A DNA stretch of 49,219 nucleotides, from contig JAWOFK010000051.1 in NCBI GenBank assembly GCA_046497565.1, forward strand, positions 1 through 49,219, written 5' to 3'. The position numbers and the translations under genes were made by a program. The first letter of the stretch is position 1. Each line of letters starts with the position of its first letter. The stretch comes from Dehalococcoidia bacterium. Its GTDB lineage: Bacteria; Chloroflexota; Dehalococcoidia; GIF9; AB-539-J10. The notes below the pieces were generated by a model. That model did no database searches. It was not told the DNA's origin and was given only the letters and a program-made list of their open reading frames with translations. Shown here in pieces: positions 2,639 to 15,951 of the stretch.

Positions 2639-2664
2639 GGAATTTAGGTGTGGGGGGGCGGCGG

Positions 2665-2716: not shown

Positions 2717-2762
2717 CACTCCTTTTGACTTGCCGTTGGGTGCGGTTTACAATAAAGGGCAC

Positions 2763-2848: not shown

Positions 2849-2925
2849 AATTGAGCCATTAGAGTCAACGGCGGATTTCACGTTGGGAAGGGCGGGGACA
2901 AGCCCCGCCCGTACGAGTCTAGCCT

Positions 2926-3033
2926 GTCATTGCGAGGCTAACGAAGTGCCGAAGCAATCCCGGCGGGGTCGCAACAGCAAAGAGATCGCCACGTCCCGAT
3001 TGTCCCGATACAATCGGGAGGACTGGCAATGAC
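2926..3033. repeat. Gene-less MITE-like palindromic unit
   Basis: GTCATTGCGAGGCTAACGAAGTGCCGAAGCAATCCC - loop - GAGATCGCCACGTCCCGATTGTCCCGATACAATCGGGAGGACTGGCAATGAC. Confidence 0.7.
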
Positions 3034-3086
3034 AGGAGGGGTGCATCGGGACTCGCGATGACAAAACGGGTGGACGGGGGCAGAGC

Positions 3087-3668
3087 ATGATCCTCTGGAC
3101 TATTCAAGACATGGCAGCCTGGGAACGGCTCCAGCGCGATGGCGTGCTCCGGGCTGATGGTAGGCGCGTTCCGAAATACTTCCGTCACGCCTACCGATGG
3201 ATGTCAGAACAGATGCGTCTCAGGTTACGCTCTCACCCTGCCCGCTTTCCGCTCTGGGGATGGTATCGCTGGGAGGGAACAGAGCGATGCAGGCCAGACC
3301 TGCGCGCTGGGGGACACCTGGCCAGGGGGGCAGCCGGCGTCCGCATTGAAATCAACCTCCCCGATGATATGGTTCTCCTGTCCGACTTCGAGGCCTGGCA
3401 TTGTGTCCTCAACCGGTGCCTTCTTTCTCTGAATGAACACGAATTTGACGGCTTCCATGCGGAGTTGGCGAGCGAAGGGGCTGGTAGGCGCTGGCCCCAT
3501 CCCGAGCCATTCCATTCGCAAGTGGTGTCCAGCTGGGAGCGCATTTTCGAACTGGAGGGCGGTGATGTAGAGTGGCGGGGTCCCATATCCGGACGCAGTG
3601 TTCAGGCGACCTTCTGGGAACTGGCTGTACATCAGATTCGCCGCGTGGACCGGTTTAAGGCAAGATGA
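3087..3668 (+). CDS. DUF3841-domain protein
   Basis: 193 aa; N-terminus MILWTIQDMAAWERLQRDGVL and overall length match my recollection of DUF3841; function unknown. Confidence 0.6.
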   Translation: MILWTIQDMAAWERLQRDGVLRADGRRVPKYFRHAYRWMSEQMRLRLRSHPARFPLWGWYRWEGTERCRPDLRAGGHLARGAAGVRIEINLPDDMVLLSDFEAWHCVLNRCLLSLNEHEFDGFHAELASEGAGRRWPHPEPFHSQVVSSWERIFELEGGDVEWRGPISGRSVQATFWELAVHQIRRVDRFKAR

Positions 3669-3854
3669 AGGTAAGGGTCGGGGCTAAGCAGTGTCCGGTC
3701 AAATCCGAAACTCGAAGCACGAAATCCGAGATGCCGATAGAATCGGCAGGAGTTATGAGAATCAACGAAATAACCCCCCTTGAATCCCCCTTACGTGAAA
3801 GCAGTCAGCTTTAAGCTTTCAGCTTCATATATATACCTGGTATGGGGGGGGTGG

Positions 3855-3947
3855 GCTGACCGCTGATTCCTGACCGCTGATAGCTGAAAGCTGAATGCTG
3901 ATTGCTGATGGCTGATGGCTAATCCCTGATTGCTGACCCCTGACCGC
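3855..3947 (+). repeat. Heptanucleotide tandem array (GCTGAYN)n, about 13 units
   Basis: GCTGACC GCTGATT CCTGACC GCTGATA GCTGAAA GCTGAAT GCTGATT GCTGATG GCTGATG ... Confidence 0.85.
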
Positions 3948-4025
3948 CTAAAGCTCTTTCCTGCATGTCTCAAAGCATCGAGATTCGTGGGAATGGTATA
4001 ATATGTATTCACACGGATGTGAAGA

Positions 4026-4229
4026 ATGACAAGGACAGTCTCGATATCCGAGGACAGCATCATAGCGATGCTGAAAGGATTGCCTGAAGATACCCTGATG
4101 AACATATTTTCAAAGATGCTGGTTGAAAGTGATACCTCTCCGCTCACAGATGAAGAAAACGCATCGTATAAGAAAGCTCTGAAAGAGCATGAGAAAGGGG
4201 AAACTATCGATTGGGAAGACTTGAGATAG
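4026..4229 (+). CDS. Small antitoxin-like protein, family not recognised
   Basis: 67 aa, acidic C-terminal half; followed in another frame by a RelE/ParE-like N-terminal fragment. Compositionally distinct from the flanking repeats. Confidence 0.5.
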   Translation: MTRTVSISEDSIIAMLKGLPEDTLMNIFSKMLVESDTSPLTDEENASYKKALKEHEKGETIDWEDLR

Positions 4230-4276
4230 AGTTTTCTGGACATGCTGAGCGACAACTGAAAGAAGCAGGGCGGTAA
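4211..4276 (+). pseudogene. Possible truncated relE/parE-type toxin remnant
   Basis: 21-codon frame LGRLEIEFSGHAERQLKEAGR* resembles the N-terminus of RelE/ParE toxins (y.iefs..A.kqLkkl). It overlaps the end of 4026-4229 as TA pairs do and stops where a repeat arm begins. Confidence 0.3.
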
Positions 4277-4327
4277 CAACCCCCGCCCCAGATTGCCGCG
4301 CTCCGCTCGCAATGACGCACCCTTGCT

Positions 4328-4419
4328 GTCATTGCGAGGCTAACGAAGTGCCGAAGCAATCCCGTGGTGGACTGGGCAGGATGGGCATCGCCGCGCACCT
4401 TTCAGGCGCTCGCAGTGAC
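4328..4419. repeat. Gene-less MITE-like palindromic unit (degenerate right arm)
   Basis: GTCATTGCGAGGCTAACGAAGTGCCGAAGCAATCCC ... ATCGCCGCGCACCTTTCAGGCGCTCGCAGTGAC; an extra solo right arm at 4291-4316. Confidence 0.65.
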
Positions 4420-4439
4420 TGGAAGTATAGGAGGAAATC

Positions 4440-4655
4440 ATGAGGATAAGCTATGACGAAAAGACGGATTCCCTCTATGTGAGGCTAAAAGAGACCCCTT
4501 ACTACGAAAGCGACGAGGTAAGGCAAGGCGTTCTGCTGGACTATGACGACAAGGGAAACGTAATCGCCATCGAGATTCTGGATGCTAGCGAATACCTGTC
4601 CGGTGATGAGCTTACTTCACTAACGTACAATGTGGAGAAAGCTGTCACCAGATAG
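4440..4655 (+). CDS. DUF2283-domain protein (antitoxin-like)
   Basis: 71 aa; RBS AGGAGG upstream; MRISYDEKTDSLYVRL...VLLDYDDKGNVIAIEIL is the characteristic DUF2283 pattern. Confidence 0.75.
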   Translation: MRISYDEKTDSLYVRLKETPYYESDEVRQGVLLDYDDKGNVIAIEILDASEYLSGDELTSLTYNVEKAVTR

Positions 4656-4957
4656 CCGAAGGAACAGGGGGAGACTAGAATCCCCGTCCAAAATAACCCC
4701 CTGTGTCCCCCGTACGTTAAAGCGGTCAGCGGTCGGCTGTCAGCGGTCAGCACATAACCCCCCTTGAATCCCCCCTTATGTTAAGGGGGAAAGAAGAAGG
4801 GAGCCCTTACACTAAGGGGGAGATGCAGGAGGGTACTTACGTGAAGGGGAAGATCTGAAGGGGCGCTTCCTGGAAGGAGGAGATTAGCAGTGTTAGGAGA
4901 TGTCGCTCCTTTGACAGACCTTGTCGGCTCGTACTAGAATGGAGACGGAGGACAGTC

Positions 4958-5200
4958 ATGCTAACTGAATACATCGACGCAGCCATGGGGAAGGCGAAAT
5001 ATGAGATCCTTTGTGATGACAACACTTTCTACGGATATATCCCTGGCTTTGACGGTGTCTATGCCAATGCTGAGGATTTGGAGGCATGCCGGCGTGAGCT
5101 AAAAGAGGTTCTGGAGGAGTGGATCATGCTTGGCATATCCCGTCATGTAGCGTTGCCTGCTGTTGATGGCATTGAACTGGTCGTAGAGGAAGCGGTCTAG
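4958..5200 (+). CDS. hicB: HicB-family antitoxin
   Basis: 80 aa; RBS GGAGGA upstream; ...FYGYIPGFDGVYANAEDLEACRRELKEVLEEWI; stop overlaps the hicA start. Confidence 0.75.
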   Translation: MLTEYIDAAMGKAKYEILCDDNTFYGYIPGFDGVYANAEDLEACRRELKEVLEEWIMLGISRHVALPAVDGIELVVEEAV

Positions 5201-5418
5201 TGCCCCGCCTCGGCTCCATAAAGAGAATCGATCTAATCAGGTATCTTCAAATCCTAGGCTTTCAAGGCCCCTATTCTGGAGGGAAACACCAATTCATGAT
5301 CAGGGGCGCGCTGCGTTTGCGCCTCCCTAATCCGCACAGGAGCGACGTCGGCAAGGAACTCCTTTCCAGGATTCTAAAACAGGCAGATATCGATAAGGAT
5401 ATCTGGGAGCGGCTGTAG
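5200..5418 (+). CDS. hicA: HicA-family mRNA interferase toxin
   Basis: 72 aa, GTG start overlapping the hicB stop; ...LGFQGPYSGGKHQFMIRG...RLPNPHRSDVGKELLSRILKQADI matches the HicA/YcfA pattern. Confidence 0.8.
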   Translation: MPRLGSIKRIDLIRYLQILGFQGPYSGGKHQFMIRGALRLRLPNPHRSDVGKELLSRILKQADIDKDIWERL

Positions 5419-5420
5419 AT

Positions 5421-5478
5421 CGCTGAAAGCTGATTGCTGAGCGCTGACAGCTATTTTCTCTGACTGCTGATCGCTGAT
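5421..5478 (+). repeat. Heptanucleotide tandem array (degenerate)
   Basis: GCTGAAA GCTGATT GCTGAGC GCTGACA GCT... CTGACT GCTGATC GCTGATT. Confidence 0.7.
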
Positions 5479-5602
5479 TTGTCATTTGGGTTTTGAAATT
5501 TGGCATTTCCCAGAGGAAATCCCCCAAAAGTACCAGGGGAGCGAGGGATTTTCGCTCTGGCAGCGACTAATACTATGACAAAAGTACTGGTCTAGGAGTT
5601 CT

Positions 5603-5956
5603 ATGAGGATAAGAGATAATTCTGGCGACGATGAAGAGCACAGCGAGGAGGTAATCCGGTCCTTGCCCATAATTGCCAGACAGGAAAGTGCCGGGGCGAC
5701 GCCTGTCCCGGGAGTGGGGGGTTGCCCGGTGGAGTTTACGCTGAGCAAAGGCCGGATTATTCTCCCTGACCAGTGGGACCTTTCCATGACAGACCACCCG
5801 GTAAGTGCCGGTTACGATGAACCGGAGGACGAAGCAGACTCGTCCGAGGCAGCTTCTGACCCCGAAGTCGAAAATGGTGCGCCGGCGGAGTCTGTGTGCG
5901 GCGAACGCCGGCCGGGTTCCAATTTGAGATTTCGAATTCATTTAGGCATGTCCTGA
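5603..5956 (+). CDS. Hypothetical acidic protein with C-terminal SNLRFRIHLGMS motif
   Basis: 117 aa; AGGAG 5 nt before the ATG. The C-terminal ~37 aa are conserved at protein level, with mostly synonymous or conservative codon changes, against the fragment at 6903-7034. Confidence 0.55.
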   Translation: MRIRDNSGDDEEHSEEVIRSLPIIARQESAGATPVPGVGGCPVEFTLSKGRIILPDQWDLSMTDHPVSAGYDEPEDEADSSEAASDPEVENGAPAESVCGERRPGSNLRFRIHLGMS

Positions 5957-5980
5957 GCCTGCGCAACGAATTCAGTCCCC

Positions 5981-6067
5981 GCTGATAGCTGATAGCTGAC
6001 TGCTGACTGCTGAAAGCTATTCGCTGACCGCTCAGTGCTGACTGCTGACCGCCGCCCGCTGATTGCT
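5981..6067 (+). repeat. Heptanucleotide tandem array (GCTGAYN)n, about 12 units
   Basis: GCTGATA GCTGATA GCTGACT GCTGACT GCTGAAA GCTATTC GCTGACC GCTCAGT GCTGACT GCTGACC ... Confidence 0.85.
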
Positions 6068-6159
6068 CTGGTAGCCGTGATCTGATACCATGGTTGAGAT
6101 GCCATACCGGCCGTGGTTACTGGTTGAATCGGAATAAGCACAAAGAGGTAGATAGAAAC

Positions 6160-6375
6160 ATGAAGGTGAAAGAGCTTACAGTCGAGCAGTTCAAAACCTT
6201 GATTCAGGAGGCCATTGAGGAAAAGCTAGAGGAGGTGCTTGGTGATCCTGATGAGGGCCTTGAGCTAAGGGAGGAGGTCAAGGAAAGGCTTCGTAGTTCT
6301 CTGGCTGCCAGGGAGGCTGGTGAAAGGGGCATACCCATGGATCAGGTAGCCAGAGAAGTCGGACTGGATTGGTGA
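6160..6375 (+). CDS. Antitoxin partner of the RelE/ParE toxin
   Basis: 71 aa from the ATG at 6160 (the track ORF starts earlier at 6094); helical acidic protein; its 3' end overlaps the toxin start by 7 nt. Confidence 0.65.
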   Translation: MKVKELTVEQFKTLIQEAIEEKLEEVLGDPDEGLELREEVKERLRSSLAAREAGERGIPMDQVAREVGLDW

Positions 6376-6638
6376 CAGAATACGGGATAGTGTTCATGCC
6401 CCGGGCTGCTGATGACCTGCGGCGCCTGGATAAACCCGTTGCCCAGCGGATCATATATAAGCTGAATTGGTTGTCACAGAATTTCAGCGAACTTGCGCCC
6501 AGGACACTGGCAGGCGAATTCAAGGGGTTCTATAGGCTCCGAGCGGGAAACTTTCGAGTTATTTACACTGCCCACCGAGAAGAGCATTTGCTCATGGTGC
6601 ATCTCATCGGTCACCGCAGGGATATTTACAGGCGCTAA
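6369..6638 (+). CDS. relE: RelE/ParE-family type II toxin
   Basis: 89 aa; ...AADDLRRLDKPVAQRIIYKL...FYRLRAGNFRVIYTAHREEHLLMVHLIGHRRDIY is the canonical RelE/StbE pattern. Confidence 0.8.
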   Translation: MVTEYGIVFMPRAADDLRRLDKPVAQRIIYKLNWLSQNFSELAPRTLAGEFKGFYRLRAGNFRVIYTAHREEHLLMVHLIGHRRDIYRR

Positions 6639-6649
6639 GGTTCGTTTTG

Positions 6650-6907
6650 GGCAAGGGCAGGAGCATTGGGGGCAGGGCACTGGGGGCTACGCCCCCAGAC
6701 CCCCGATTTCAGGGGCATTGGGGGCAGGGCACTGGGGGCTACGCCCCCAGACCCCCGATTTCACGGGCATTGGGGGCAGGGCACTGGGGGCTACGCCCCC
6801 AGACCCCCGATTTCACGGGCACTGGCGACAGGGCACTGGGGGCTACGCCCCCAGACCCCCGATTTCAGGGGCATTGGCGGCAGAGCACTGGGGGCTGCGC
6901 CCCCGGA
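6650..6907 (+). repeat. 52-bp tandem repeat, 5 units
   Basis: GCAC of successive units at 6677, 6729, 6781, 6833 and 6885 (period 52). Each unit carries the hairpin GGGGGC-TA-GCCCCC followed by AGACCCCCGATTTCA. Confidence 0.9.
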
Positions 6908-7034
6908 TACCCTGGCAGGAGACGAGGAGCCGGAAACGGAAGAAGAGGCGGGGGCAGACCCCGGCCCTGAAGTTGAGGATGATGTGGCGGCGGATTCCAA
7001 CCTCAAAATCAGAATCTATCTGGGCATGTCGTGA
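6903..7034 (+). pseudogene. C-terminal fragment paralogous to 5603-5956 (ends DSNLKIRIYLGMS)
   Basis: DEEPETEEEAGADPGPEVEDDVAADSNLKIRIYLGMS aligns with DEPEDEADSSEAASDPEVENGAPA...SNLRFRIHLGMS. The upstream part of the open frame is only the 52-bp repeat. Confidence 0.4.
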
Positions 7035-7184
7035 GTTTGTCCCAAGAGTCCGGTGCCCGCCAACTGCTGACTGCTGATCGCTGATTTGTAATTTGGATTT
7101 TGTCATTTGACATTGGCTTACGGGATTCATAACCCCTTGTGTCCCCCGTACTTTAAGGGGGAGATCTGAAGGTACGCCTTACTC

Positions 7185-7328
7185 TAAGGGGGAGAGCAAG
7201 AGGGAGATCCTGAAATGCCAAATTACAAAGCTCAAATGTCAAGTGAAGCTCAAAGTCCAAATGACAAAGAGAAGTAGTTTTGACATTGGGGCATTTGGGT
7301 TTTATTTGTAATTTGGATTTTGGCATTT
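7185..7328 (+). repeat. 144-bp hairpin element, family A, copy A2 (left inverted repeat of the pilin cassette)
   Basis: Identical to A1. Its reverse complement matches 8205-8348 with 2 mismatches in 144. Confidence 0.9.
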
Positions 7329-7374
7329 GTAATTTTCTATCGCCGGGTGTACTATCAAACAGTACTATTGTTCT

Positions 7375-7417
7375 ATTACCCATGGGTGATTGACGCTAAA
7401 ATGCGCTGTGTTATACT
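7375..7417 (+). promoter_or_regulatory. Putative sigma70-type promoter of the major pilin gene
   Basis: ATTAC-N10-TTGACG (7390-7395)-N16-TATACT (7412-7417). The same ATTAC-N10-TTGAC-N16-TATACT layout occurs upstream of pilO and the PilX-like gene at 15076. Confidence 0.6.
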
Positions 7418-7540
7418 GAAGATTATTGAAGCTAAATCCAGAAAAAGCAGAACAAGGAGGTGATAGCAGGCCATACGAGAAAATAGAGTACACGAGATAG
7501 ACCCGGAAGAGCACAAAAAATCAAAGAAAGGAGATAAAGA

Positions 7541-8065
7541 ATGTCGAAAGTAAAGAATCCCATATTCAAGTGCATGCACAGAGGGGAGAAGGGTTTCACC
7601 CTCATTGAGCTGCTGGTAGTGATTGCCATCCTGGGCGTTATCGCTGCCGTAGTGGCGCTCAATATCGCCGGCTTCTTCGGCCGGGGGACCCTCCAGGCGG
7701 CCAACACCGAGCTGCACCAGGCCCAGACGGCCATCATATCCGCCATGGCGGACGCCGAGACTAACAATATCTTCGCGGGTAATACGACCCCGGATGCTGA
7801 TGGCAACATATTGTGGGCCGGTGAGGAGGGCTGGGTATTGGTCCAGGCCTCCGCCGGGAATTCTACCGACGCCGCTAGTTATGTCTACGGGCCGTTCAGG
7901 GCGGTGTACGCGGTCGATGACACCGGCGCCATAGTCGATGGCTGGTGTTACGATCATGGGTCACCCCCCGCTAACCTCCCCGGCAATCCCTGGGGACCCA
8001 CCATCATCTGGGACGCCGACTTCAGTAACTGGAGGGCAGCCGAGGAGGGCGATTATCCTGCATAA
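7541..8065 (+). CDS. pilA: Type IV major pilin (prepilin-type N-terminal cleavage/methylation domain)
   Basis: 174 aa; RBS AAAGGAG upstream; leader ending KG followed by FTLIELLVVIAILGVIAAV (class III signal, Glu at +5); followed by an intrinsic terminator. Confidence 0.9.
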   Translation: MSKVKNPIFKCMHRGEKGFTLIELLVVIAILGVIAAVVALNIAGFFGRGTLQAANTELHQAQTAIISAMADAETNNIFAGNTTPDADGNILWAGEEGWVLVQASAGNSTDAASYVYGPFRAVYAVDDTGAIVDGWCYDHGSPPANLPGNPWGPTIIWDADFSNWRAAEEGDYPA

Positions 8066-8108
8066 TACCGCTGACAGGTAATCGTCAATCTCTCATCCGA
8101 AACCCAAG

Positions 8109-8147
8109 TCTGGCGGCGAAGGTGACTTCGCCGCCAGAGCTTTTTTT
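8109..8147 (+). terminator. Rho-independent terminator of the pilin gene
   Basis: CTGGCGGCGAAG-GTGA-CTTCGCCGCCAG stem-loop followed by AGCTTTTTTT. Confidence 0.85.
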
Positions 8148-8204
8148 GGTTAGATAGCTGTCGGCAATCAGCAATCAGCCCGCCGCCCCCCACACCTGAA
8201 TTCC

Positions 8205-8348
8205 AAATGCCAAAATCCAAATTACAAATAAAACCCAAATGCCCCAATGTCGAAACTACTTCTCTTTGTCATTTGGACTTTGAGCTTCACTTGACATTTG
8301 AGCTTTGTAATTTGGCATTTCAGGATCTCCCTCTTGCTTTCCCCCTTA
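8205..8348 (-). repeat. 144-bp hairpin element, family A, copy A3 (right inverted repeat of the pilin cassette)
   Basis: Reverse complement equals A2 except for G/A and T/C substitutions. Confidence 0.9.
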
Positions 8349-8399
8349 ACGTAAGGGCTCCCTTGTTCTTTCCCCCCTTAGAGTAAGGGGGAGATTTGG

Positions 8400-8666
8400 C
8401 TAGGTTTTTCGTCCGGTTGAGTCGGGACTCAGAGTTATGGGAGAACGCGAGCGCAATCGCTCCAGGATCCACATGCGGGCAAGGGTGGTGGGTCCAATAC
8501 CGAGTTCCCCGGCCTCGGCCCTGATCTGCTCCCACTTGTCCGCCGGCAGCCGTACCGGGATGACCTTGTCCAGAGGCCTCTTAACCTCTACCTGCACCAC
8601 CTCATCACCCTCATCCCAGGCATCGCCCTTTTCGATGTCTTCTACTGCTCTGCGTAGATCAGTCAT
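8400..8666 (-). CDS. BrnA/CopG-like antitoxin
   Basis: 88 aa; ...VIPVRLPADKWEQIRAEAGELGIGPTTLARMWILERL is a ribbon-helix-helix-type C-terminus; starts 2 nt after the upstream toxin-like ORF. Confidence 0.65.
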   Translation of the reverse strand: MTDLRRAVEDIEKGDAWDEGDEVVQVEVKRPLDKVIPVRLPADKWEQIRAEAGELGIGPTTLARMWILERLRSRSPITLSPDSTGRKT

Positions 8667-8667
8667 A

Positions 8668-8952
8668 TTATCCTCCTGTCATCGCCTTGTTGTAGAGCCG
8701 TCTCTCGCTGTCAGTCATCTCCCTGGCTGTGACTATCCTCCAGTTGCCTCCGCCCACGTTGGCCAGGACTACCAGCACATACCTTCCTGCCATAGTCTGG
8801 CTAAACAGCTTGTATAGGCCTTCCCTGCCTCTTCTGACGTGTCGCCTCTCAGAGAGACAGGCCTCCTCCGCCTCCTCGAGAGAAAGGCCGTGCTTGGCCT
8901 CGATCTTATCGAGAATGTGGTCGTCGATCTCCAGAGCTTCGATACGCAGCAC
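8668..8952 (-). CDS. BrnT-like (DUF497-type) toxin
   Basis: 94 aa, GTG start; ...KHGLSLEEAEEA...GRYVLVVLANVGGGNWRIVTAREMTDSERRLYNK resembles the BrnT C-terminal pattern (i.SAR.at..Er..Y). Confidence 0.55.
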   Translation of the reverse strand: MLRIEALEIDDHILDKIEAKHGLSLEEAEEACLSERRHVRRGREGLYKLFSQTMAGRYVLVVLANVGGGNWRIVTAREMTDSERRLYNKAMTGG

Positions 8953-8975
8953 TGACCATCTCCCTACCGTATACT

Positions 8976-9004
8976 ATTGTATAGGAAATGTATACTGCTG
9001 TCAA
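8976..9004 (-). promoter_or_regulatory. Putative promoter/operator of the brnT-brnA-like pair
   Basis: On the - strand TTGACA-N17-TACAAT; the spacer and -10 region carry GTATAC ... GTATA ... GTATAC palindromic boxes. Confidence 0.5.
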
Positions 9005-9014
9005 TCAGAGAAAA

Positions 9015-9108
9015 TAGCGGTCAGCAATCAGCGGTCAGAGAAGATAGCTATCAGCGGTCAGCAGTCAGCAATCAGCAATCAGCAATCAGCTATGAGCTAT
9101 CAGCGATC
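9015..9108 (-). repeat. Heptanucleotide tandem array (reverse orientation, NRTCAGC)
   Basis: ...GGTCAGC AATCAGC GGTCAGA ... TATCAGC GGTCAGC AGTCAGC AATCAGC AATCAGC AATCAGC TATGAGC TATCAGC. Confidence 0.85.
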
Positions 9109-9207
9109 TGTTTTCCCCCTTAGAGTAAGGGGGATTCAAGGGGGTTACTTCAATAATCTTCATAACTCCCCCTAACCCCCTCTTACCTTAAGAGGGGGAG
9201 CAAGTGG

Positions 9208-9253
9208 ATCAGGGGTCAGCGGTCAGCTATCAGCTATCAGCGGTCAGCAATCG
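9208..9253 (-). repeat. Heptanucleotide tandem array (reverse orientation)
   Basis: GGTCAGC GGTCAGC TATCAGC TATCAGC GGTCAGC AATCGG. Confidence 0.85.
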
Positions 9254-9317
9254 GATATGCCTCACCACTACCACCTGGATTGCCGCAGGGCTTCGCCCTT
9301 CGCAAAGACGAGGGGGA

Positions 9318-9394
9318 TTAGCGGTCGGTAAAAAGCTATCAGCGGTCAGCGGTCAGCGATCAGCTATCAGCGATCAGGAATCGGCAGTCAGCAG
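9318..9394 (-). repeat. Heptanucleotide tandem array (reverse orientation)
   Basis: TATCAGC GGTCAGC GGTCAGC GATCAGC TATCAGC GATCAGG AATCGGC AGTCAGC. Confidence 0.85.
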
Positions 9395-9482
9395 ATAACC
9401 CCCCTGAATCCCCCCTTACGTTAAGGGGGACATTAAGAGGGAGCCCTTGCTCTAAGGGGGAGATTGGAAGAAACCCCCTTTT

Positions 9483-9576
9483 GTCATTGCGAAGGGCGTT
9501 AGCCCTGAAGCAACCTCGGTGGGGTGGCAACAGCAAAGGGATTGCCGCGTCCCGACAAGTCGGGACTCGCAATGAC
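9483..9576. repeat. Gene-less MITE-like palindromic unit
   Basis: GTCATTGCGAAGGGCGTTAGCCCTGAAGCAACCTC-GGTGGGGTGGCAACAGCAAAG-GGATTGCCGCGTCCCGACAAGTCGGGACTCGCAATGAC; near-identical to 10262-10355. Confidence 0.8.
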
Positions 9577-9638
9577 AGGAGGGATGCATCGGGACTCGCA
9601 ATGACAAGAGGTGGCTCGCAATGACACACCGCTGACCT

Positions 9639-10024
9639 GTCATTGCGAGGAGCCCCGATAGATCGGGGCGACGAAGCAATCTCTGGTACAATACTGGCAG
9701 TGAACAAGCAATACTACGTCTACATAATGACAAACAACAGGAACACCGTGCTTTACGTGGGGGTCACCGGCGACTTACTAAAGAGAGCCTACGAGCATAA
9801 GGCGAAGCTCGTTGAGGGGTTCACCAAGAAGTACAACATCGTCAAACTTGTATACTACGAGGTCTGTGAGGATATAGAGAGTGCGATTTTGAGGGAGAAG
9901 CAGATAAAGGCTGGGTCGAGGCAGAAGAAGATGCAGTTGATTGATAGTGCAAACACAGAATGGCGTGACCTGTATGACCAGTTATGAGATTGCCGCGTCC
10001 CGACAAGTCGGGACTCGCAACGAC
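9639..10024 (+). mobile_element. Candidate GIY-YIG-encoding palindromic element (inverted arms flanking the nuclease gene)
   Basis: Left arm 9639-9683 and right arm 9986-10024 are inverted copies: outer GTCATTGCGAG / CTCGCAACGAC, inner GCAATCTC / GAGATTGC, each with its own hairpin. The same arms form gene-less units elsewhere. Confidence 0.45.
9700..9987 (+). CDS. GIY-YIG nuclease family protein (small stand-alone type)
   Basis: 95 aa from the in-frame GTG at 9700; YYVYIMTNNRNTVLYVGVTGDL...YEHK...KLVYYE...AILREKQIKAGSRQKK is the GIY-YIG signature. The track ORF start at 9643 lies inside the repeat arm. Confidence 0.85.
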   Translation: MNKQYYVYIMTNNRNTVLYVGVTGDLLKRAYEHKAKLVEGFTKKYNIVKLVYYEVCEDIESAILREKQIKAGSRQKKMQLIDSANTEWRDLYDQL

Positions 10025-10027
10025 AGA

Positions 10028-10161
10028 AGCATTGGGGGCAGAGCACTGGGGGCTACGCCCCCAGACCCCCGATTTCACGAGCATTGGGGGCAGAGCACTG
10101 GGGGCTACGCCCCCAGACCCCCGGACAGGAGCACTGGGGGCTTCGCCCCCAAGCCCCCGAC
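10028..10161 (+). repeat. 52-bp tandem repeat (about 2.5 units)
   Basis: Same units as 2321-2455 and 6650-6907. Confidence 0.85.
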
Positions 10162-10261
10162 TGGAGAGGCATTTATAACCCCCTGTGTCCCCCTTACATT
10201 AAGGGGGGAGATTAAGAGGGAGCCCTTGCTCTAAGGGGGAGATTGGAAGAAACCCCCTTTT

Positions 10262-10355
10262 GTCATTGCGAAGGGCGTTAGCCCTGAAGCAATCTCGGTG
10301 GGGTGGCAACAGCAAAGAGATTGCCGCGTCCCGACAAGTCGGGACTCGCAATGAC
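10262..10355. repeat. Gene-less MITE-like palindromic unit
   Basis: GTCATTGCGAAGGGCGTTAGCCCTGAAGCAATCTC-loop-GAGATTGCCGCGTCCCGACAAGTCGGGACTCGCAATGAC. Confidence 0.8.
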
Positions 10356-10385
10356 AGTAGGGTGGGGCGGGCGTGGGAGGCTCTG

Positions 10386-11465
10386 CTATCTTCCCGAATA
10401 TACCGTCACCCTGCCGATGAGCTTTTCCACTTCCTTCTGGTCGCAGCAGAAACCGAGCAGCGTTTCACCGCTGATGATTCCTCTGAGGTAGAGGCTGACC
10501 AGGGCTTCGTCCATGGAAATCATTCCTATGTCCCGGTGGGTACGGATTACATTGGGCAGCTGGTAGATTTTGCCCTCGCGGATGAGGGCCTTGACCGGCG
10601 GATTGCCGAGCATAATCTCCACGGCAGCTACTCTACCCGAGCCGTCGGCCCTGGGCACCAGCGCCTGGCACAGCACAGCCACCAGCAGAGAAGCCAGCCG
10701 TGATTGAGCCAGGTGGCGCTGATGGGGCGGGAACAAATCGATTATCCTCTCCATGGCCTGAGTAGCGCTGGGGGCATGACCGGTGGTCAGTATGAAGTGC
10801 CCGGTCTCCGCCAGCGTAAGCACGGCATCGGCGGTGTCCGGATCTCTCATCTCACCCAGGAGAATCACGTCCGGGTCCTGCCTCAAGATATGCTTGAGGG
10901 CATTGGCAAAGGACAGGGTATCGCTGCCCAGCTGCCGCTGGGTCACCGCACATTTGCGGCTGGCGTGAACATATTCTATAGGGTCCTCGACGGTGACCAC
11001 ATGACGGGTCTCGTTGAAATTGAGGTGCTGAATCATAGCGGCCATGGTGGTAGTCTTACCGCTGCCGGTAGGTCCCGTTACTATCACCAGTCCCCGCGGC
11101 CTCATTATCAGCTCCTTGCATATGGCGGGCAGCGCCAGCTCATCTATGGTGGGGATTTTGGGCGGCAGCAGGCGGATAGCAAGGCTGATAGACCCCTGTT
11201 GCTGGGCGGCATTGCAGCGCAGCCGACCGACACCGGCCAGGGTATAACCGAAATCGAGCTCCAGATGGCGATGAAAGTGTTCCCTCTCCTCGGGCGTGGT
11301 TATCTGGAGAAAGGCCTCGTTCACCTCCTCAGAAGTGAGTGGAGTGATACCATTTGCCGTTTCCAGGGAGCCATTGATGCGGAACATGGCCGGGCTGGCC
11401 ACCACCATGTGCAGGTCGGAGGCGTCCCTTGACTTGCCTTGACGAAGTAATGCAAAAACGTCCAT
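10386..11465 (-). CDS. pilT: Type IV pilus retraction ATPase PilT
   Basis: 359 aa; ASDLHM, Walker A GPTGSGKTTT, Asp box VTVEDPIEY, Walker B ILLGEMRD, His box TGH...T; typical PilT length. Confidence 0.9.
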   Translation of the reverse strand: MDVFALLRQGKSRDASDLHMVVASPAMFRINGSLETANGITPLTSEEVNEAFLQITTPEEREHFHRHLELDFGYTLAGVGRLRCNAAQQQGSISLAIRLLPPKIPTIDELALPAICKELIMRPRGLVIVTGPTGSGKTTTMAAMIQHLNFNETRHVVTVEDPIEYVHASRKCAVTQRQLGSDTLSFANALKHILRQDPDVILLGEMRDPDTADAVLTLAETGHFILTTGHAPSATQAMERIIDLFPPHQRHLAQSRLASLLVAVLCQALVPRADGSGRVAAVEIMLGNPPVKALIREGKIYQLPNVIRTHRDIGMISMDEALVSLYLRGIISGETLLGFCCDQKEVEKLIGRVTVYSGR

Positions 11466-11607
11466 TTCTGTGCCTCCCTTTATCTCATTAAGTCAAACAC
11501 ATAGTGTTATCTCTGTCAATTCGAAGCCCTGCTCCTCACGCAGATTGCTTCGCCCCGACAGGTCGGGGCTCGCAAAGATATCCATACTATCCTTTCCATA
11601 AATCATC

Positions 11608-13023
11608 TTACTTCGTTAATGAAATACTGAATGACCCGGCCTCGCTGACGGAGGGTATCCAGACCACGGAGAATCTGCCGCTATTTCTCAGCGCCCGGGC
11701 GTAAGCATATGCTGCATCCACAGTGGGACCCGACCCGCTCAGCGACACCGAGCCGCCCGAATGACCGACGCTGCTCAAGGTGACCCTCTCTCCGGCCAGC
11801 CTGTAAATCTCCTGCAAATCTTCATGCATCGTAGCACGGTCCCGCTGAAGCGCGGTAATCGTGTCATGGAGCGTATCGCCGATTTCTTCTGTCGACGTAA
11901 CCTCCGCTCTCAACGCCGTTACATCCCTCTGCTGTTGGGTAACACGGCTTTCGGCAGTTGTCACTGCGGGACGCAATTCCTCTATCCTGGCGCGATTGTG
12001 CAGGACAAGAACTCCGCCCAGGACAACCAGGCCGATGCCGATGACGATACCGACGGGGATAAGGACGCGGGCTATGGAAAAACTGGGAGGTATGTAGGCT
12101 TCGGGCAGGGCATTGAAGTTCACCAACGAGGAATCGGTCGCTTCCTTTTCCAGCGGCAATTCCTTGAGCGCCAGGCCTATATTGACCATGAACTCGTTGG
12201 GGTTGAAGCCCTCGGGGGCTGCCACAGGCGACGGCAGAGGTGACACGGAGTAGCCCGTTTCGCCGACCAGCGCAGGCCACGTCTCCGGTGCTTCTGCCAG
12301 GTCGCCGCAGATAAGGACGGGCACAGATGAGTCGAGCGGCCTTTCCAGGTGGGTGGAATTGTAGAAGGTGACGGTCCTGGTGAACTCCTCGGCGATAAAC
12401 GGCAGTTTGTCCTCCAGCGATTCAACCTCCCCGGGCAGGGACAGGGTACGGATTACCTCGGGAATCCTGTCTGATATAACCATAACATCAAAGTGCTCTA
12501 ACCTGACATTCACCACAATGGCCCGGGGCTGGTTGGGGATGCGGCATACTGCCAGGGGAGCCAGGTCCATAAAATATGGCTTAACACCGGCCTGATGCAG
12601 TGTTCTAACCAGAGCATCGGTCAGATTACGGGGGAAGGTGGCCAGGAAGAAGCGTCTTTCCTTGGTAGCGGGAATGCTCTGGTAGGAGAAGTAGACCTCT
12701 TCCAGACGTGTGGGCATCGTTCTCTGTGCCTCACGCCTTACCGCCTCGGGGAGTACCGCTTCCGGCAAATCGGGCAGGGTTATGATGCGGTACAGCGAAT
12801 CGAACCCGCTCAAGCCGGCGGTAACCTTCTTCGGCTGCACTCCAGTCTCCTTGAACAGCTGCTTAACCCTGTCGGCCACCTGCTCCTCATCGACGATGAG
12901 CCCCTGTCTGACCAATCCCGGTTCCAGAGGCAGGCTGGCCCACTTATCCACCTGCTTGCCCTTCATGACCAGCAGATTGATGCCGGTATCGGTAATGTAG
13001 AGAGTCGTAGCTTTCTTAGCCAT
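11608..13023 (-). CDS. pilM: PilM-PilN fusion, type IV pilus assembly protein
   Basis: 471 aa; actin-like PilM N-terminal ~300 aa, one TM helix (VLIPVGIVIGIGLVVLGGVLVL), then a coiled-coil PilN-like C-terminus; stop lies 2 nt from the pilO start. Confidence 0.75.
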   Translation of the reverse strand: MAKKATTLYITDTGINLLVMKGKQVDKWASLPLEPGLVRQGLIVDEEQVADRVKQLFKETGVQPKKVTAGLSGFDSLYRIITLPDLPEAVLPEAVRREAQRTMPTRLEEVYFSYQSIPATKERRFFLATFPRNLTDALVRTLHQAGVKPYFMDLAPLAVCRIPNQPRAIVVNVRLEHFDVMVISDRIPEVIRTLSLPGEVESLEDKLPFIAEEFTRTVTFYNSTHLERPLDSSVPVLICGDLAEAPETWPALVGETGYSVSPLPSPVAAPEGFNPNEFMVNIGLALKELPLEKEATDSSLVNFNALPEAYIPPSFSIARVLIPVGIVIGIGLVVLGGVLVLHNRARIEELRPAVTTAESRVTQQQRDVTALRAEVTSTEEIGDTLHDTITALQRDRATMHEDLQEIYRLAGERVTLSSVGHSGGSVSLSGSGPTVDAAYAYARALRNSGRFSVVWIPSVSEAGSFSISLTK

Positions 13024-13025
13024 AC

Positions 13026-13550
13026 TTATTCACCTTTATAGGCGTAAATGGTCACCGAGATGGTGGCGCTTCCGCCGCCCATGCTCACCGAGTTCACCCG
13101 GGTGCTGGCAAATCTGGGGTCGGTCCTTATGGTCTGGATGAACTCAAATATGTTATCCCGTGTCCCGCTGATGGGCAGTGAGAGAGTGACAACGGAATAG
13201 GTAACCGGCCCTACTTGTGAGTTGGTCGGTCTGGGAAAGCTCAGACCGGACAGGGTCACGTTACACTTGCGGGCAATGTCAAAGATATGCTCGCCGTATT
13301 CAATGCTGTGGATTGTCTCAGGGTATCTTGCCCGGTTCGTGGCCACGGCCGACCTGGCCCGAGCCAGGTCGTTTTCCAGTTCCTGTTTGTCGGCAATGAG
13401 TCCGGGCAGGCGGGTCTGAGCAACCGCCAGCCTGTCTTCCAGCTGTCCCAGTTCTTCCACCTGCCTGAAGTAGGTCGAGGCCAGAACGGCGATGAGGATA
13501 ACAATAACGCCGATTCCTACGATCAGCCAGACTTTCCTGCTCAATCTCAT
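13026..13550 (-). CDS. pilO: PilO-like type IV pilus assembly protein
   Basis: 174 aa; N-terminal TM helix, coiled coil, then a ferredoxin-like C-terminal region; position after pilMN. Confidence 0.65.
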   Translation of the reverse strand: MRLSRKVWLIVGIGVIVILIAVLASTYFRQVEELGQLEDRLAVAQTRLPGLIADKQELENDLARARSAVATNRARYPETIHSIEYGEHIFDIARKCNVTLSGLSFPRPTNSQVGPVTYSVVTLSLPISGTRDNIFEFIQTIRTDPRFASTRVNSVSMGGGSATISVTIYAYKGE

Positions 13551-13581
13551 TAGCTAATTCGCTCCACTCGCACGAGATATC

Positions 13582-13629
13582 AGTATAGCACGGCGGACTA
13601 CCCTGTCAATAGGCCAACGGTAATGGGAG
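13582..13629 (-). promoter_or_regulatory. Putative sigma70-type promoter of pilO-pilMN
   Basis: - strand: CTCCCATTAC-N10-TTGACA-N16-TATACT (plus-strand TGTCAA 13604-13609, AGTATA 13582-13587). Confidence 0.6.
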
Positions 13630-13640
13630 GTTAGTATAGA

Positions 13641-13789
13641 ATGCCAAATGACAAAATCCAAATTACAAATAAAACCCAAATGCCCCAATGTCAAAACTAC
13701 TTCTCCTTGTCATTTGGACTTTGAGCTTCACTTGACATTTGAGCTTTGTAATTTGGCATTTCAGGATCTCCCTCTTGCTTTCCCCCTTA
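13641..13789 (-). repeat. Hairpin element family A, copy A4
   Basis: Same as A3 with a 7-nt insertion and a few substitutions; lies directly upstream (gene sense) of the pilO promoter. Confidence 0.85.
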
Positions 13790-13812
13790 ACGTAAGGGGG
13801 ATTTAAGGGGGT

Positions 13813-13937
13813 ACCTGCTGATTGCTGACTGCTGACCGCTGACTGCTTCGTAGTAAGGGGGATGCAGGGATTACCTGCTGACGGCTGATTGCTGATAGCT
13901 GATAGCTACTTTCTCTGAGTGCCGAACGCTGATTGCT
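13813..13937 (+). repeat. Two heptanucleotide arrays separated by a CCCCCTTA-type hairpin
   Basis: CCTGCTGATTGCTGACTGCTGACCGCTGACTGC ... CCTGCTGACGGCTGATTGCTGATAGCTGATAGCT. Confidence 0.8.
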
Positions 13938-14010
13938 TTGATGCAACGGGGATTCCAGGGGGGTAAACGAATCACAGTAAATCGGGCCTTCCTTCACGAT
14001 TGAAATGTGT

Positions 14011-14037
14011 CGGGGCGGCACGTATCGTGCCGCCCCG
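14011..14037 (-). terminator. Stem-loop downstream of the PilX-like gene (possible terminator)
   Basis: CGGGGCGGCACG-ATA-CGTGCCGCCCCG, a perfect 12-bp stem 20 nt after the stop; only a weak T-tract follows on the - strand. Confidence 0.45.
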
Positions 14038-14056
14038 AACCGAGGCTCCGGAAACC

Positions 14057-15076
14057 CTAATCAGACTCCGGATTAATGAGGTATATCGTCACCGCCCAGT
14101 CGGTCCAGCCGCCCTCACCTGATCCTGTCCAAATAAGCGGACACTCACAACAGATCCCCTCGCTGTAACATCCCCCCTCCTGGTTCCAGCAGCACATAGG
14201 GCACTCAACAAAGGGGTCGGCGTACGCGTTGTTATAGATGTAGCCGCCCTGATCATCATTTACTGTAAGCTCTCCGCCGACACACACAGTGCCACCCTCA
14301 ATCTTGTCCACTGTCGTGTCTCCCTCAACACAGACCTTAGCTTCATTCTCAATACCGTTGCCGGAACCCACGCCTATAAGGTTTCCCTCAACGTAAACCT
14401 GGACACCGTCCTCACTACAGTGTCCTATATAGAGGTCCCCACCGACACAGACGATAGCCGTATCCTCGATGTTACCGAAACCAGACATTATCAAGTCTCC
14501 CTGGACATACACCTCGACGTCATCACCTTCAATATTCCTGTCTACTGTCAGGTTACCTCCAACATACACCTTGGCCTCCCCTTCGATACTCCCGGTCACG
14601 TGAAGGTTCCCATCCGTATGATACTCATAGTCGAGACTGCCCTCTATTGTTTCATCTTCAACAGTTTCCTCTGTGGCCTCGACATATGACAGTATTGTGG
14701 TACTGCTGCCATCAGCGCTGGCGGTAGAGGTAATCCTGAACACTCCCTCGCCCAGGTAATCTATCGTGACCTGAACGCCTTTGCCATTGACTTCGGATAT
14801 CGTGTAATTGTGGCTCCATGCGGTATCTGCACACTCTCCGTGTCCCAGTCCGGATACGTCGGGGTTCATCAGCTTCCAGATGGCGTCCTCAACGCCGGCG
14901 TCCGCGGCATAAAGCTCGGCCGCCTTTTTCTCGTAGACCTGTCCCGATGCGAGCCCGGTGCTCATCAGACCCAGCAAGGGAGCTAATACCAGGCCGCCCA
15001 CGACAAGCAGAACGAGCACAAGGACGAGCACCTTCCCCGTTTGACTTTTTAGCATTTCCTTCACGGTGGTTTTCAT
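14057..15076 (-). CDS. PilX-N-like pilus-associated protein with beta-helix repeats and Cys-rich C-terminus (paralog 1)
   Basis: 339 aa; N-terminal TM helix plus GQVYEKKAAELYAADAGVEDAIWKL (resembles the PilX N-terminal domain). The centre has ~18-aa repeats VYV.G.L.v...IE... (bactofilin-like). The tail is ECPMCCWNQEGGCYSEGICCECP. Confidence 0.7.
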   Translation of the reverse strand: MKTTVKEMLKSQTGKVLVLVLVLLVVGGLVLAPLLGLMSTGLASGQVYEKKAAELYAADAGVEDAIWKLMNPDVSGLGHGECADTAWSHNYTISEVNGKGVQVTIDYLGEGVFRITSTASADGSSTTILSYVEATEETVEDETIEGSLDYEYHTDGNLHVTGSIEGEAKVYVGGNLTVDRNIEGDDVEVYVQGDLIMSGFGNIEDTAIVCVGGDLYIGHCSEDGVQVYVEGNLIGVGSGNGIENEAKVCVEGDTTVDKIEGGTVCVGGELTVNDDQGGYIYNNAYADPFVECPMCCWNQEGGCYSEGICCECPLIWTGSGEGGWTDWAVTIYLINPESD

Positions 15077-15103
15077 GACATCACCTCCCTCTTGTATAAC
15101 ACC

Positions 15104-15151
15104 AGTATAAGGGATTCGTGTGGAGGGTCAATCACCCGTGAGTAATGGGAG
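15104..15151 (-). promoter_or_regulatory. Putative sigma70-type promoter of PilX-like paralog 1
   Basis: - strand: CTCCCATTAC-TCACGGGTGA-TTGACC-N16-TATACT; the upstream half is nearly identical to the pilin promoter (ATTACCCATGGGTGATTGACG). Confidence 0.6.
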
Positions 15152-15162
15152 ATTGGTACTAT

Positions 15163-15214
15163 AATCAGCGGTCAGCTATCAGCGGTCAGGAATTAGCGGT
15201 CAGCTATCAGCGAT
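15163..15214 (-). repeat. Heptanucleotide tandem array (reverse orientation)
   Basis: AATCAGC GGTCAGC TATCAGC GGTCAGG AATTAGC GGTCAGC TATCAGC. Confidence 0.85.
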
Positions 15215-15450
15215 CTGTTTTCCCCCTTAGAGTAAGGGGGACTTAAGGGGGTTATGAATCCTGTGAGCTAAATTCCAAATGACAAAATCCAAATGACAAA
15301 TAGGGCACGAGGCTAAAGCCTCGAACTACATCTGCTGACTGCTGTTTGCCTTTAGTAAGGGGGATTTAGGGGGTTACTTCAATAATTCTTCGTAACTCCC
15401 CCTAACCCCCTCTTATCCTAAGAGGGGGAAAGAACTAGCGGTCAGCGGCC

Positions 15451-15596
15451 GGATTTCCTCTCCCTCGACGGGAATCCCCTCTCCACTTGCTGGAGAGGGC
15501 CAGGGTGAGGCAAGGTGAGGGTGACCTCAATATACCCCCTCACTCTAACTCTCTCCCGCCAGGGGAGAGAGGACTTGACCGGAACCTGGCGATCTC
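15451..15596 (+). repeat. Dispersed repeat family F (GGTGAGGGTGA ... CTCTCTCCCGCCAGGGGAGAGAG)
   Basis: Core AAGGTGAGGGTGACCTCAATATACCCCCTCACTCTAACTCTCTCCCGCCAGGGGAGAGA is shared with 19068-19216. Confidence 0.85.
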
Positions 15597-15951
15597 TGGC
15601 GGTCGGGAATGGAATAGCTGATAGCTGAGGGCTGAGGGCTTGTATGCTTGGGAGAACGGGGGGCAAGGGGCTTTCCTGCTGAACGCTGACCGCTGTCTGC
15701 CGACTGCTAATTGCTGATTGCTTTGAAGTAAGGGAGACCAAAGGGGAGCTATGCGTGCAGGCGATGATGAGGCTCCCCAGCACCGTCTGTGAATGCCGCA
15801 GTGGCGGAGCATAGCGGGCTTCGAAATCAAAAAACCTGGTAGGCTCGATTGTCTCCGCTGGACCACACAGCTGCGGTTCAGCATCGAGAAGGTGGGGAGT
15901 TCGCCGTCCGCCTATTCCGAAAAATGCCAGAAGCCCGCATCAGGCAAAGCT

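Follow-up and report, generated by a model that had tools for sequence, protein, structure and literature searches.

What kind of element is formed by a small nuclease gene that lies between two inverted hairpins, in DNA where the same hairpins also occur in pairs without any gene between them? The question is raised by a 49,219-nt stretch of a Dehalococcoidia bacterium (contig JAWOFK010000051.1, positions 1 to 49,219; hereafter the window), in which an open reading frame (ORF) for a GIY-YIG nuclease of 95 amino acids, named ssn here, occupies 9700-9987 (+) between inverted arms at 9639-9683 and 9986-10024. A preliminary description of this DNA likened the layout to repetitive extragenic palindromes (REPs) with their RAYT enzymes and to miniature inverted-repeat transposable elements (MITEs), and knew of no described REP-like system with a GIY-YIG nuclease. 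Such a system has been published: the association of Ssn nucleases with SRM hairpins, together with cleavage in vitro, was reported in 2025 (Chenal et al. 2025, Nat Commun, PMC11893778), and repeats of the kind had been catalogued before (PMC3733652). The window is a further member of this kind of system, with a variant arm. We consider it very probable that the locus is an Ssn/SRM system in which ssn lies between two inverted copies of the hairpin that its product recognizes.

The Ssn family was founded on SsnA of Neisseria meningitidis, a monomeric single-domain GIY-YIG protein of 94 amino acids (CDD cd10448). It binds the hairpin NTS (CGTCATTCCCGCGMAVGCGGGAATCYRG) as single-stranded DNA (ssDNA) only and cuts a few nucleotides 5' of it; duplex DNA, RNA and the complementary strand are not acted upon, and RNA is not bound (PMC11893778). 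Across the family, the cut site lies in ssDNA 5' of "GTCAT-palindrome-C" hairpins that flank the nuclease's own gene. The GTC trinucleotide on the 5' side of the palindrome is most important for cutting by SsnA and the C directly 3' of the palindrome for binding, and extensions at the loop position are tolerated. An SRM occurs near 71% of homologues and on both sides of 42%. The sole biological role shown experimentally for the family is ssDNA restriction that modulates natural transformation in Neisseria. In the same paper the arrangement "NTS-ssnA-NTS" was likened to an insertion sequence (IS) and to REP/RAYT systems, and spread driven by Ssn was raised as a hypothesis (PMC11893778). The earlier catalogue described a superfamily of REPs tagged with CGTC or TGTC, mostly inverted dimers, as "lacking a dedicated transposase" (Di Nocera et al. 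2013, PMC3733652).

The ssn gene and its product

The ssn gene starts with GTG at 9700 and stops with TGA at 9985-9987. Its product matches PF01541 over residues 4-78 (E=3.6e-16), and no second domain was found in the Pfam search. In a pairwise BLASTP comparison it is 51% identical (E=3e-35) to the 94-residue orthologue of SsnA in N. gonorrhoeae, and tblastn with the window protein returned a single N. gonorrhoeae site at E=2e-24, against the criterion of E < 1e-10 used in PMC11893778. The comparison was made with this gonococcal orthologue and not with the protein of N. meningitidis, and the orthologue was taken from a chromosome that is filed as a plasmid in PLSDB (L005; loci used for comparison are given L numbers). 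Two 2.17-Mb N. gonorrhoeae "plasmid" records of PLSDB, NZ_CP119140.1 and NZ_CP119142.1, are apparently chromosomes. The gonococcal ORF has NTS hairpins on its flanks and carries Y6, Y17 and E64. These residues of SsnA, which were mutated in PMC11893778, correspond to Y8, Y19 and E66 of the window Ssn and are invariant in our alignment (A1). Relative to its relatives the gene shows a dN/dS of 0.06-0.13 at a dS of 0.7-1.5. Judged by its sequence, the window Ssn is an orthologue-level relative of Neisseria SsnA and agrees with the family in every protein test that was run; we infer its cleavage specificity from the published work on four homologues. 

No second GIY-YIG ORF was found by tblastn in the window; the copy count of one is known for this contig. 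PADLOC returned no match to a defence-system model. The similarity of the window Ssn to the UPF0213 structure 1ZG2 (BH0048) was marginal (E=0.03).

A place among homing endonucleases of the I-TevI type was considered and rejected. These enzymes have in common with Ssn the GIY-YIG fold and a presence/absence polymorphism, but the window Ssn is without a DNA-binding domain, lies outside any intron or phage and, by homology, would take an ssDNA hairpin as its substrate. The group-I-intron endonuclease model TIGR01453 gave a score of 20.2 against a cutoff of 56.05 and covered only the first 35 residues.

Between the left arm and the start codon is a short leader (9684-9699, +) with an extended -10-like box, TGgTACAAT (9684-9692), which ends 7 nt 5' of the GTG. 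Boxes with the consensus TGnTAnAAT (TGGTACAAT, TGATACAAT, TAGTATAAT, TGTATAAT) stand at the equivalent position in the window, L001, L004, L007 and L016, and the weaker form GATATACT does so in L003. A simple two-hexamer scan reported no sigma-70 promoter 5' of the ORF. The box is a putative promoter by its conservation alone, and the mRNA would possibly be near-leaderless.

The arms that flank ssn

The left arm (9639-9683, +) reads GTCATTGCGAGgagCCCCGATagaTCGGGGcgacgaaGCAATCTC and is parsed as GTCATTGCGAG-gagCCCCGATagaTCGGGGcgacgaa-GCAATCTC. Its TGTC tag points outward. The basal stem, ATTGC/GCAAT, encloses an internal loop and the 7 bp of a distal stem (CCCCGAT/ATCGGGG), and the arm ends in the tail CTC. 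The right arm (9986-10024, -), whose reverse complement reads GTCGTTGCGAG-TCCCGACttGTCGGGA-cgcg-GCAATCTC, is a hairpin of the same kind with its tag likewise outward. It begins within the TGA stop codon of ssn, and this overlap, the ORF and both arms were confirmed when the sequence was reread. Folded as ssDNA, the left arm reaches -10.5 kcal/mol (z = -2.3) and the right arm -11 kcal/mol (z = -3.3).

All arms follow one plan: a T/C-GTC tag, a palindrome that begins with AT (5 bp, ATTGC...GCAAT), a C and a short tail; a distal hairpin of variable sequence and an internal loop rich in purines are inserted at the loop position. Their length is 26-51 nt. The sequence of the distal stem varies and yet the stem stays paired (CCCCGAT/ATCGGGG, GGGC/GCCC, GGCAC/GTGCC, CACC/GGTG and GCTGGC/GCCAGC). 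CGTC or TGTC stands before the palindrome in most copies, the tag being TGTC in about 15 of 21 when read by eye, and the 3' tail is CTC or CCC. A pattern of GTC, WYNNN, the reverse complement of the latter and C fits both arms around ssn and 16 arms of the window, where 5.0 are expected. Because the arms keep the GTC 5' and the C 3' of the palindrome, and their variable distal hairpins match the loop extensions that SsnA tolerates, we take them for Ssn-related hairpins.

The positions of both arms recur in relatives. An arm lies 19 nt 5' of the start codon in the window, L001 and L004, and at the equivalent place in L003 and L007. The right arm overlaps the stop codon, or is separated from it by 0-1 nt, also in L001, L003, L004, L007, L016, L017, L020, L021, L024, L025, L037 and L051. 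The arm cores are intact at equivalent positions despite the dS of 0.7-1.5 between the ssn genes.

Arms and ssn in other genomes

Relatives of the window protein were collected in a scan with one genome per species, and the 80 best loci were analyzed. They span Dehalococcoidia (best 81% identity), cyanobacteria, Nitrospirota, Ignavibacteria, Bacillota, Planctomycetota, candidate phyla radiation groups, Proteobacteria and others. A generic arm detector was used that asks for GTC and a WYNNN palindrome start, followed within 70 nt by the reverse complement and a C. It found 196 arms no more than 200 nt from the 80 ssn genes, a 20.6-fold enrichment in density over the far flanks; in total there were 345 arms against 59 in shuffles.

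The preliminary description had noted that ssn is nested in the same type of inverted pair as the gene-less units, and this generalizes. The nearest arms are + upstream and - downstream, with tags outward, in 40 of 86 loci, which makes this the commonest layout, present in many phyla; many lineages have 0-7 nt between the stop codon and the start of the downstream arm. Among 67 arm pairs that bracket a gene, the orientation is +- in 42, -+ in 7, ++ in 12 and -- in 6. Neighboring arms without a gene and at most 40 nt apart are +- in 54 cases and -+ in 41, against 8 for ++ and 9 for --, and the median spacer of the +- pairs is 17 nt.

With the published Ssn/NTS-SRM systems the window therefore has in common a protein of 94-95 amino acids with one GIY-YIG domain, 51% identity and equivalent catalytic Tyr, Tyr and Glu; a gene flanked on both sides by hairpins made of a GTC tag, an AT-initiated palindrome and a C; repeats that are scattered between genes, often in inverted clusters; and a family that extends across many phyla. 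It differs from them in several respects. The NTS stem of Neisseria is continuous over 8-9 bp (ATTCCCGC), whereas the basal stem in the window has 5 bp (ATTGC/GCAAT) with the loop and distal hairpin inserted. The right arm lies over the stop codon, and the host is Dehalococcoidia-like (Chloroflexota), known here from sequence alone.

Three observations weigh against the assignment to Ssn/SRM. The published SRM pattern, HGTCWYN(0-2)YYVSBRHN(0-5)WNVSBRGN(0-2)RNCYNB, has 0 matches in the window (0.22 expected), so the arms are assigned through the homology of their features and not through the published definition; a 3.3-kb N. gonorrhoeae locus has 9 matches to it, and the 80 related loci have just 19 between them. 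Activity of Neisseria SsnA is abolished when the sequence of the palindrome is altered and its structure kept (PMC11893778), so that specificity must have co-evolved and is not simply transferable to ATTGC-type arms. Lastly, the nearest arms in Neisseria are arranged -/+, a minority layout among the loci, whereas the tags in the window point outward (+/-).

The arms also resemble the CGTC REP superfamily, which includes dRS3 of Neisseria and RPE-4/-6 of Rickettsia. Both have a terminal CGTC or TGTC tag, a stem that begins with A-T and a short unpaired 3' tail. The superfamily is described as predominantly inverted (HH) dimers; among the neighboring arms at most 40 nt apart in the loci analyzed here, inverted orientations (+- and -+) prevail. 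The families CGTC-1 to -4 have stems of 8-9 bp and loops of 4-5 nt, whereas in the window arms a 5-bp stem leads into an internal loop and then into another stem-loop, which is variable. The tail is CCA in the CGTC REPs and CTC in the window; Chloroflexi were not reported as carriers, and no dedicated enzyme was found for the superfamily (PMC3733652).

REP elements can serve as terminators or mRNA stabilizers (PMC3733652), and the arms might likewise act on RNA or transcription, with ssn as an unrelated passenger. They are stable hairpins, one of them lies over the ssn stop codon and others lie in short intergenic gaps (such as that at 46123-46150). A plain terminator, however, has no need of a non-palindromic GTC tag and a 3' C, which are conserved strand-specifically across phyla. 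The arms carry no T-tracts, a terminator scan stayed at background level, and a scan of the whole window at the Rfam gathering thresholds found six tRNAs only and no family at the arms. The roughly 20-fold enrichment of arms beside ssn genes and the lack of RNA binding by SsnA (PMC11893778) also speak against this explanation, which we regard as highly improbable.

One homologue lies on a plasmid. In Planktothrix agardhii plasmid p1 (L006, 18847-19131) an ssn homologue that is 63% identical has arms of an ATTCT type, with an MmeI-type restriction-modification gene on one side and DISARM drmA on the other, inside a plasmid defence island.

Arms elsewhere in the window

The 11-mer GTCATTGCGAG, with at most one mismatch, occurs 20 times in the window where 0.92 occurrences are expected and the largest count in shuffles was 5. 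A two-part regular expression identifies 15 full arms. The five gene-less inverted pairs of the preliminary description were all recovered, at 639-755, 2926-3033, 4328-4419, 9483-9576 and 10262-10355. Its statement that they fold into a branched hairpin holds for four of them, with z from -4.4 to -6.9 for the ssDNA fold, but not for the fifth.

The pair at 9483-9576 consists of a + arm (9483-9517), a 20-nt spacer and a - arm (9538-9576) and has a branched fold with z = -4.9; the pair at 10262-10355 is built in the same way (+ arm 10262-10296, 20-nt spacer, - arm 10317-10355; z = -6.9). They are contained in two copies of a 184-nt segmental repeat, 9400-9583 and 10179-10362, that are 93% identical, and hence are not independent insertions. 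In the pair at 639-755 (z = -6.1) the + arm is identical to the left arm of ssn and the - arm has a longer distal part. The pair at 2926-3033 (z = -4.4) is followed by an orphan half-arm (3052-3062). The pair at 4328-4419 is degenerate, with an intact + arm and a decayed - arm, and folds no better than shuffles (z = -0.18).

The solo arms previously listed were found again with one exception: the supposed arm at 9591-9625 is made up of two orphan 5' half-arms (9595-9605 and 9615-9625, both -), which lie outside the - arm of the pair at 9483-9576. Two further orphan halves were added to the list, that at 3052-3062 and one at 19051-19062 (+), where CGTCATTGCGAG stands without its closing half. 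The solo arm at 2279-2317 (-) is of the right-arm type and shares about 160 nt of downstream sequence with the right arm of ssn, arm and downstream sequence being duplicated together (2275-2477 and 9982-10184, 96% identical). A short solo arm at 4289-4316 (-) has a CGTC tag and a distal part of only CGGAGCG. The arm at 11541-11578 (-) lies in the intergenic region between pilT and pilM. That at 17066-17106 (-) belongs to the left-arm type, has decayed at its 3' end and is 91% complementary to 631-685, and a short arm at 46123-46150 (-) fills a 38-nt gap between two co-directional ORFs.

MITE-like mobility of these units, as proposed at first, found no backing. Neither target-site duplications nor near-identical copies at unrelated sites, as expected of MITEs and ISs, were found at the arms: a likeness between their flanks (CCYTTT before GTCAT, on either strand) belongs to the C/T-rich consensus of the arm itself, and the pairs most similar to each other both lie in the 184-nt segmental repeat. 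Nor was it accepted that the 20-nt spacer is what an internal deletion of ssn left behind, as the similarity in the alignment was weak and forced.

Inheritance of ssn and its place beside the pilus genes

The ssn gene adjoins pilT in the window, L003 and L004 and lies about 6 kb from it in L001. In the window it borders a cluster of type IV pilus genes (10386-24833; PilT, PilM, pseudopilins, PilC and PilB), and ssn is adjacent to pilus genes in at least 12 further related metagenome loci. Between the window and three other assemblies (L001, L003 and L004), PilT is 80-83% and Ssn 80-84% identical. A metagenome scan with PilT yielded 80 orthologous loci, 61 of them with enough downstream sequence to be informative; ssn lies within 3.5 kb of pilT in 12 of the 61 and not in the other 49. 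Where ssn is present, its pairwise identities between loci correlate with those of pilT (Spearman 0.77 over 104 pairs, which are non-independent). These data point to mainly vertical descent of ssn, with losses.

Type IV pili are the usual machines of DNA uptake. The nuclease may serve its host as in Neisseria, by trimming incoming ssDNA that bears arms and so modulating transformation or recombination, while the arms mark the chromosome and the pairs are sites where recognition hairpins have accumulated. Such a function would match the only role shown experimentally for the family (PMC11893778), and the position of ssn beside the pilus cluster, in the window and in the further loci, would fit it. 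The surroundings of the pilus genes, however, are also simply the most repeat-rich intergenic DNA of the window, and the 49 informative pilT loci with no ssn within 3.5 kb speak against such a function. The placement of the gene inside an arm pair and the conserved overlap with the stop codon would be left unexplained. We consider restriction of incoming DNA a possible function of this locus, with more doubt than confidence.

The DNA around pilT is variable. Between pilT and pilM, L003 has a spacer of 12 nt without an arm and the window one of 142 nt with a single arm; in L004 (390 nt) and L001 this spacer extends over 390-650 nt and holds several arms. In L004 the spacer between pilT and hicA measures 987 nt and contains ssn together with about 14 arms, whereas in L123 it has 217 nt, two arms and no ssn, and other repeats fill it in L137, L122 and L092; with L004 these four loci share 90-93% nucleotide identity in pilT and 93-96% in the hicA flanks. 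Both the occupied and the empty state, which the preliminary description proposed to compare, are thus found between pilT and hicA, but no clean empty site and no target-site duplication were found there. The region, 217 to about 1840 nt in length, is crowded with repeats and hypervariable (L004, reverse complement of 9561-10860; L123, 4520-4830; L137, L122, L092 and L102), so exact boundaries of insertion are not definable. Long arrays of CCCCCTTAnnnTAAGGGGG hairpins lie between pilT and hicA in related loci, for example in L137.

The presence or absence of ssn among such close relatives is also what would be expected of a classical autonomous IS that now transposes selfishly as a gene-arm unit, with the arms as its terminal inverted repeats and the gene-less pairs as MITE derivatives. 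The inverted arms that end the unit around a nuclease gene would suit an IS, as would a tandem duplicate of ssn in L095 (4955-5773), where the copies are 90% identical in nucleotides and one (L095b) has an in-frame stop. Decay of the kind seen in such elements is suggested by in-frame stops in 3 of about 18 copies overall, the ssn genes of L007 (4001-4288) and L145 (3082-3366) each having a single one. A selfish element is nevertheless at odds with a single copy in 49 kb, the correlation with pilT and a dN/dS of about 0.1. It would also be expected to bring target-site duplications and a transposase fold, neither of which was seen, and no transposase was found among the 20 window ORFs scanned. 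We judge an autonomous IS to be improbable.

Two genes near ssn or within the pilus cluster deserve a record of their own. The PilB-type ATPase (T2SSE and MshEN domains; 22383-24833, -) has an N-terminal Mrr_cat restriction-endonuclease-like domain, also in L003 and L004. A 23S_rRNA_IVP (four-helix-bundle) gene lies near ssn in L001 (4169-4567) and L002 (359-757); 23S_rRNA_IVP genes are often bracketed by similar repeats.

Half-arms and the multiplication of arms

The orphan 5' half-arms consist of the 5' 11-18 nt of an arm followed by a C/T-rich spacer of about 10 nt. Of 407 full arms, 46 have such halves outside the tag side, and 2 have an orphan 3' half on the opposite side. Their distance from the full arm is 20-29 nt (peak 21-26) or about 52 nt, and they occur in 26 loci, including Neisseria and the Planktothrix plasmid. 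Stacks of them are seen in the window (9595-9625 and 3052-3062), in L006 (1840-1900), in L005 and, in large number, in L004 and L001. We found no earlier description of such one-sided stacking. The side on which the half-arms stack is that of the reported SsnA cut, and the stacks may conceivably be linked to nicking and repair.

If the window Ssn acts as its homologues do, ssDNA exposed during replication, during repair or in incoming transforming DNA would be bound at the basal stem and 3' C of an arm, and the tagged strand would then be cut a few nucleotides 5' of the GTC, with duplex DNA, RNA and the complementary strand spared. Since the tags of both arms point outward, the cuts are predicted to fall just outside each unit and on opposite strands. 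The gene is chromosomal, with strong purifying selection and mostly vertical inheritance, and the arms are a fast-changing intergenic population of pairs, arrays, solo and truncated copies.

This layout may be likened to REPINs or BIMEs around a single-copy RAYT gene (Bertels and Rainey 2011, PMC3116915; Nunvar et al.). In both cases a tagged hairpin forms inverted doublets with short spacers, and a single-copy, mostly vertical nuclease gene is flanked by its own repeats within a highly dynamic repeat population. The comparison with REP-RAYT systems made at the outset accordingly stands for layout and vertical inheritance but fails for the enzyme, which is a GIY-YIG hydrolase and not an HUH/Y1 transposase (IS200/IS605-like); the tag is GTC in the window and GTAG in those systems.

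It is conceivable that Ssn and the arms form a replicator of this sort, in which Ssn nicks at the outward tags and host repair or replication copies the arm pairs, on occasion the pair that bears the gene; on this view a domesticated, single-copy nuclease gene would have the arms as its non-autonomous partners. Several observations suit such copying: ssn is nested in the same type of +- pair as the gene-less pairs with their median spacer of 17 nt, arm content differs strongly at orthologous pilT-pilM spacers (12 to 390-650 nt), and at 90% pilT identity the pilT-hicA spacer either lacks ssn and holds two arms in 217 nt (L123) or holds ssn and about 14 arms in 987 nt (L004). The half-arms stand on the cut side (46 vs 2 of 407), the gene behaves as a vertical single-copy gene as RAYTs do, and the hypothesis was itself raised in PMC11893778. 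On the other hand, no new insertion, clean empty site or target-site duplication was found; several copies lie in segmental duplications, which recombination between repeats could produce with no dedicated enzyme; and a derivation of the pairs' spacer from ssn could not be demonstrated. GIY-YIG nucleases hydrolyze DNA, and we know of no strand-transfer or joining activity among them. A role of Ssn as the agent that multiplies the arms is thus unproven, and we hold the replicator to be a tentative proposal that falls short of being probable.

Copying of arms and restriction of incoming DNA are not mutually exclusive, and both may be in play at once. In its most specific form, the proposal would have the arm pairs as a REPIN-like population, copied through nicks that a GIY-YIG hydrolase makes outside the tags together with host replication and repair, and the half-arm stacks of Dehalococcoidia, cyanobacteria and Neisseria as the footprints of this process; we put it forward as a speculation that is more doubtful than likely.

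Other repeats and genes of the window

Several other repeats share the window with the arms. Arrays of a 52-nt tandem unit (GGGGGCAGAGCACTGGGGGCTACGCCCCCAGACCCCCG...) lie at 2322-2460, 6611-6921 and 10029-10160, and two of the three abut hairpins of the right-arm type. Hairpins of the form CCCCCTTAnnnTAAGGGGG occur at 12 window sites (for example 427-450, 8369-8392, 9111-9134, 9407-9430 and 10185-10208), often just outside arm pairs. A repeat family of 140-178 nt with 87-98% identity, not related to the Ssn arms, has five copies, two in one orientation (2473-2657 and 7157-7339) and three in the other (8186-8376, 13631-13811 and 17928-18098). From about 2650 to 19560, on both strands, the DNA between genes is densely filled by repeats with a 7-nt period (AGCGGTC / AGCTATC / AGCAATC) and by another family of heptads (CCAAATG / ACAAAAT ...), which are similar to the short heptamers repeated in tandem in cyanobacteria. 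Small toxin-antitoxin genes (BrnT-like, PIN) lie at 8400-8952 (-) and 18358-18747 (-) amid repeat-rich DNA, as do six tRNA genes (11-386, 2763-2845 and 48901-48973).

Implications for the Ssn family

The ATTGC/GCAAT arm with its variable hairpin is the commonest type among the relatives of the window protein and evades the published pattern, so published counts of SRM-flanked homologues are probably underestimates. The outward tags and the overlap with the stop codon are widespread and constrain models of how the enzyme acts on its own locus, and new pairs of Ssn enzyme and hairpin are candidate reagents for ssDNA technology. The stutter of half-arms and the occupied and empty sites between pilT and hicA provide concrete sequences for the question whether Ssn multiplies its hairpins. 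If it does, the CGTC REP superfamily would gain its missing enzyme in vivo, and Ssn/SRM would be a second, mechanistically independent origin of domesticated-replicator repeats in bacteria.

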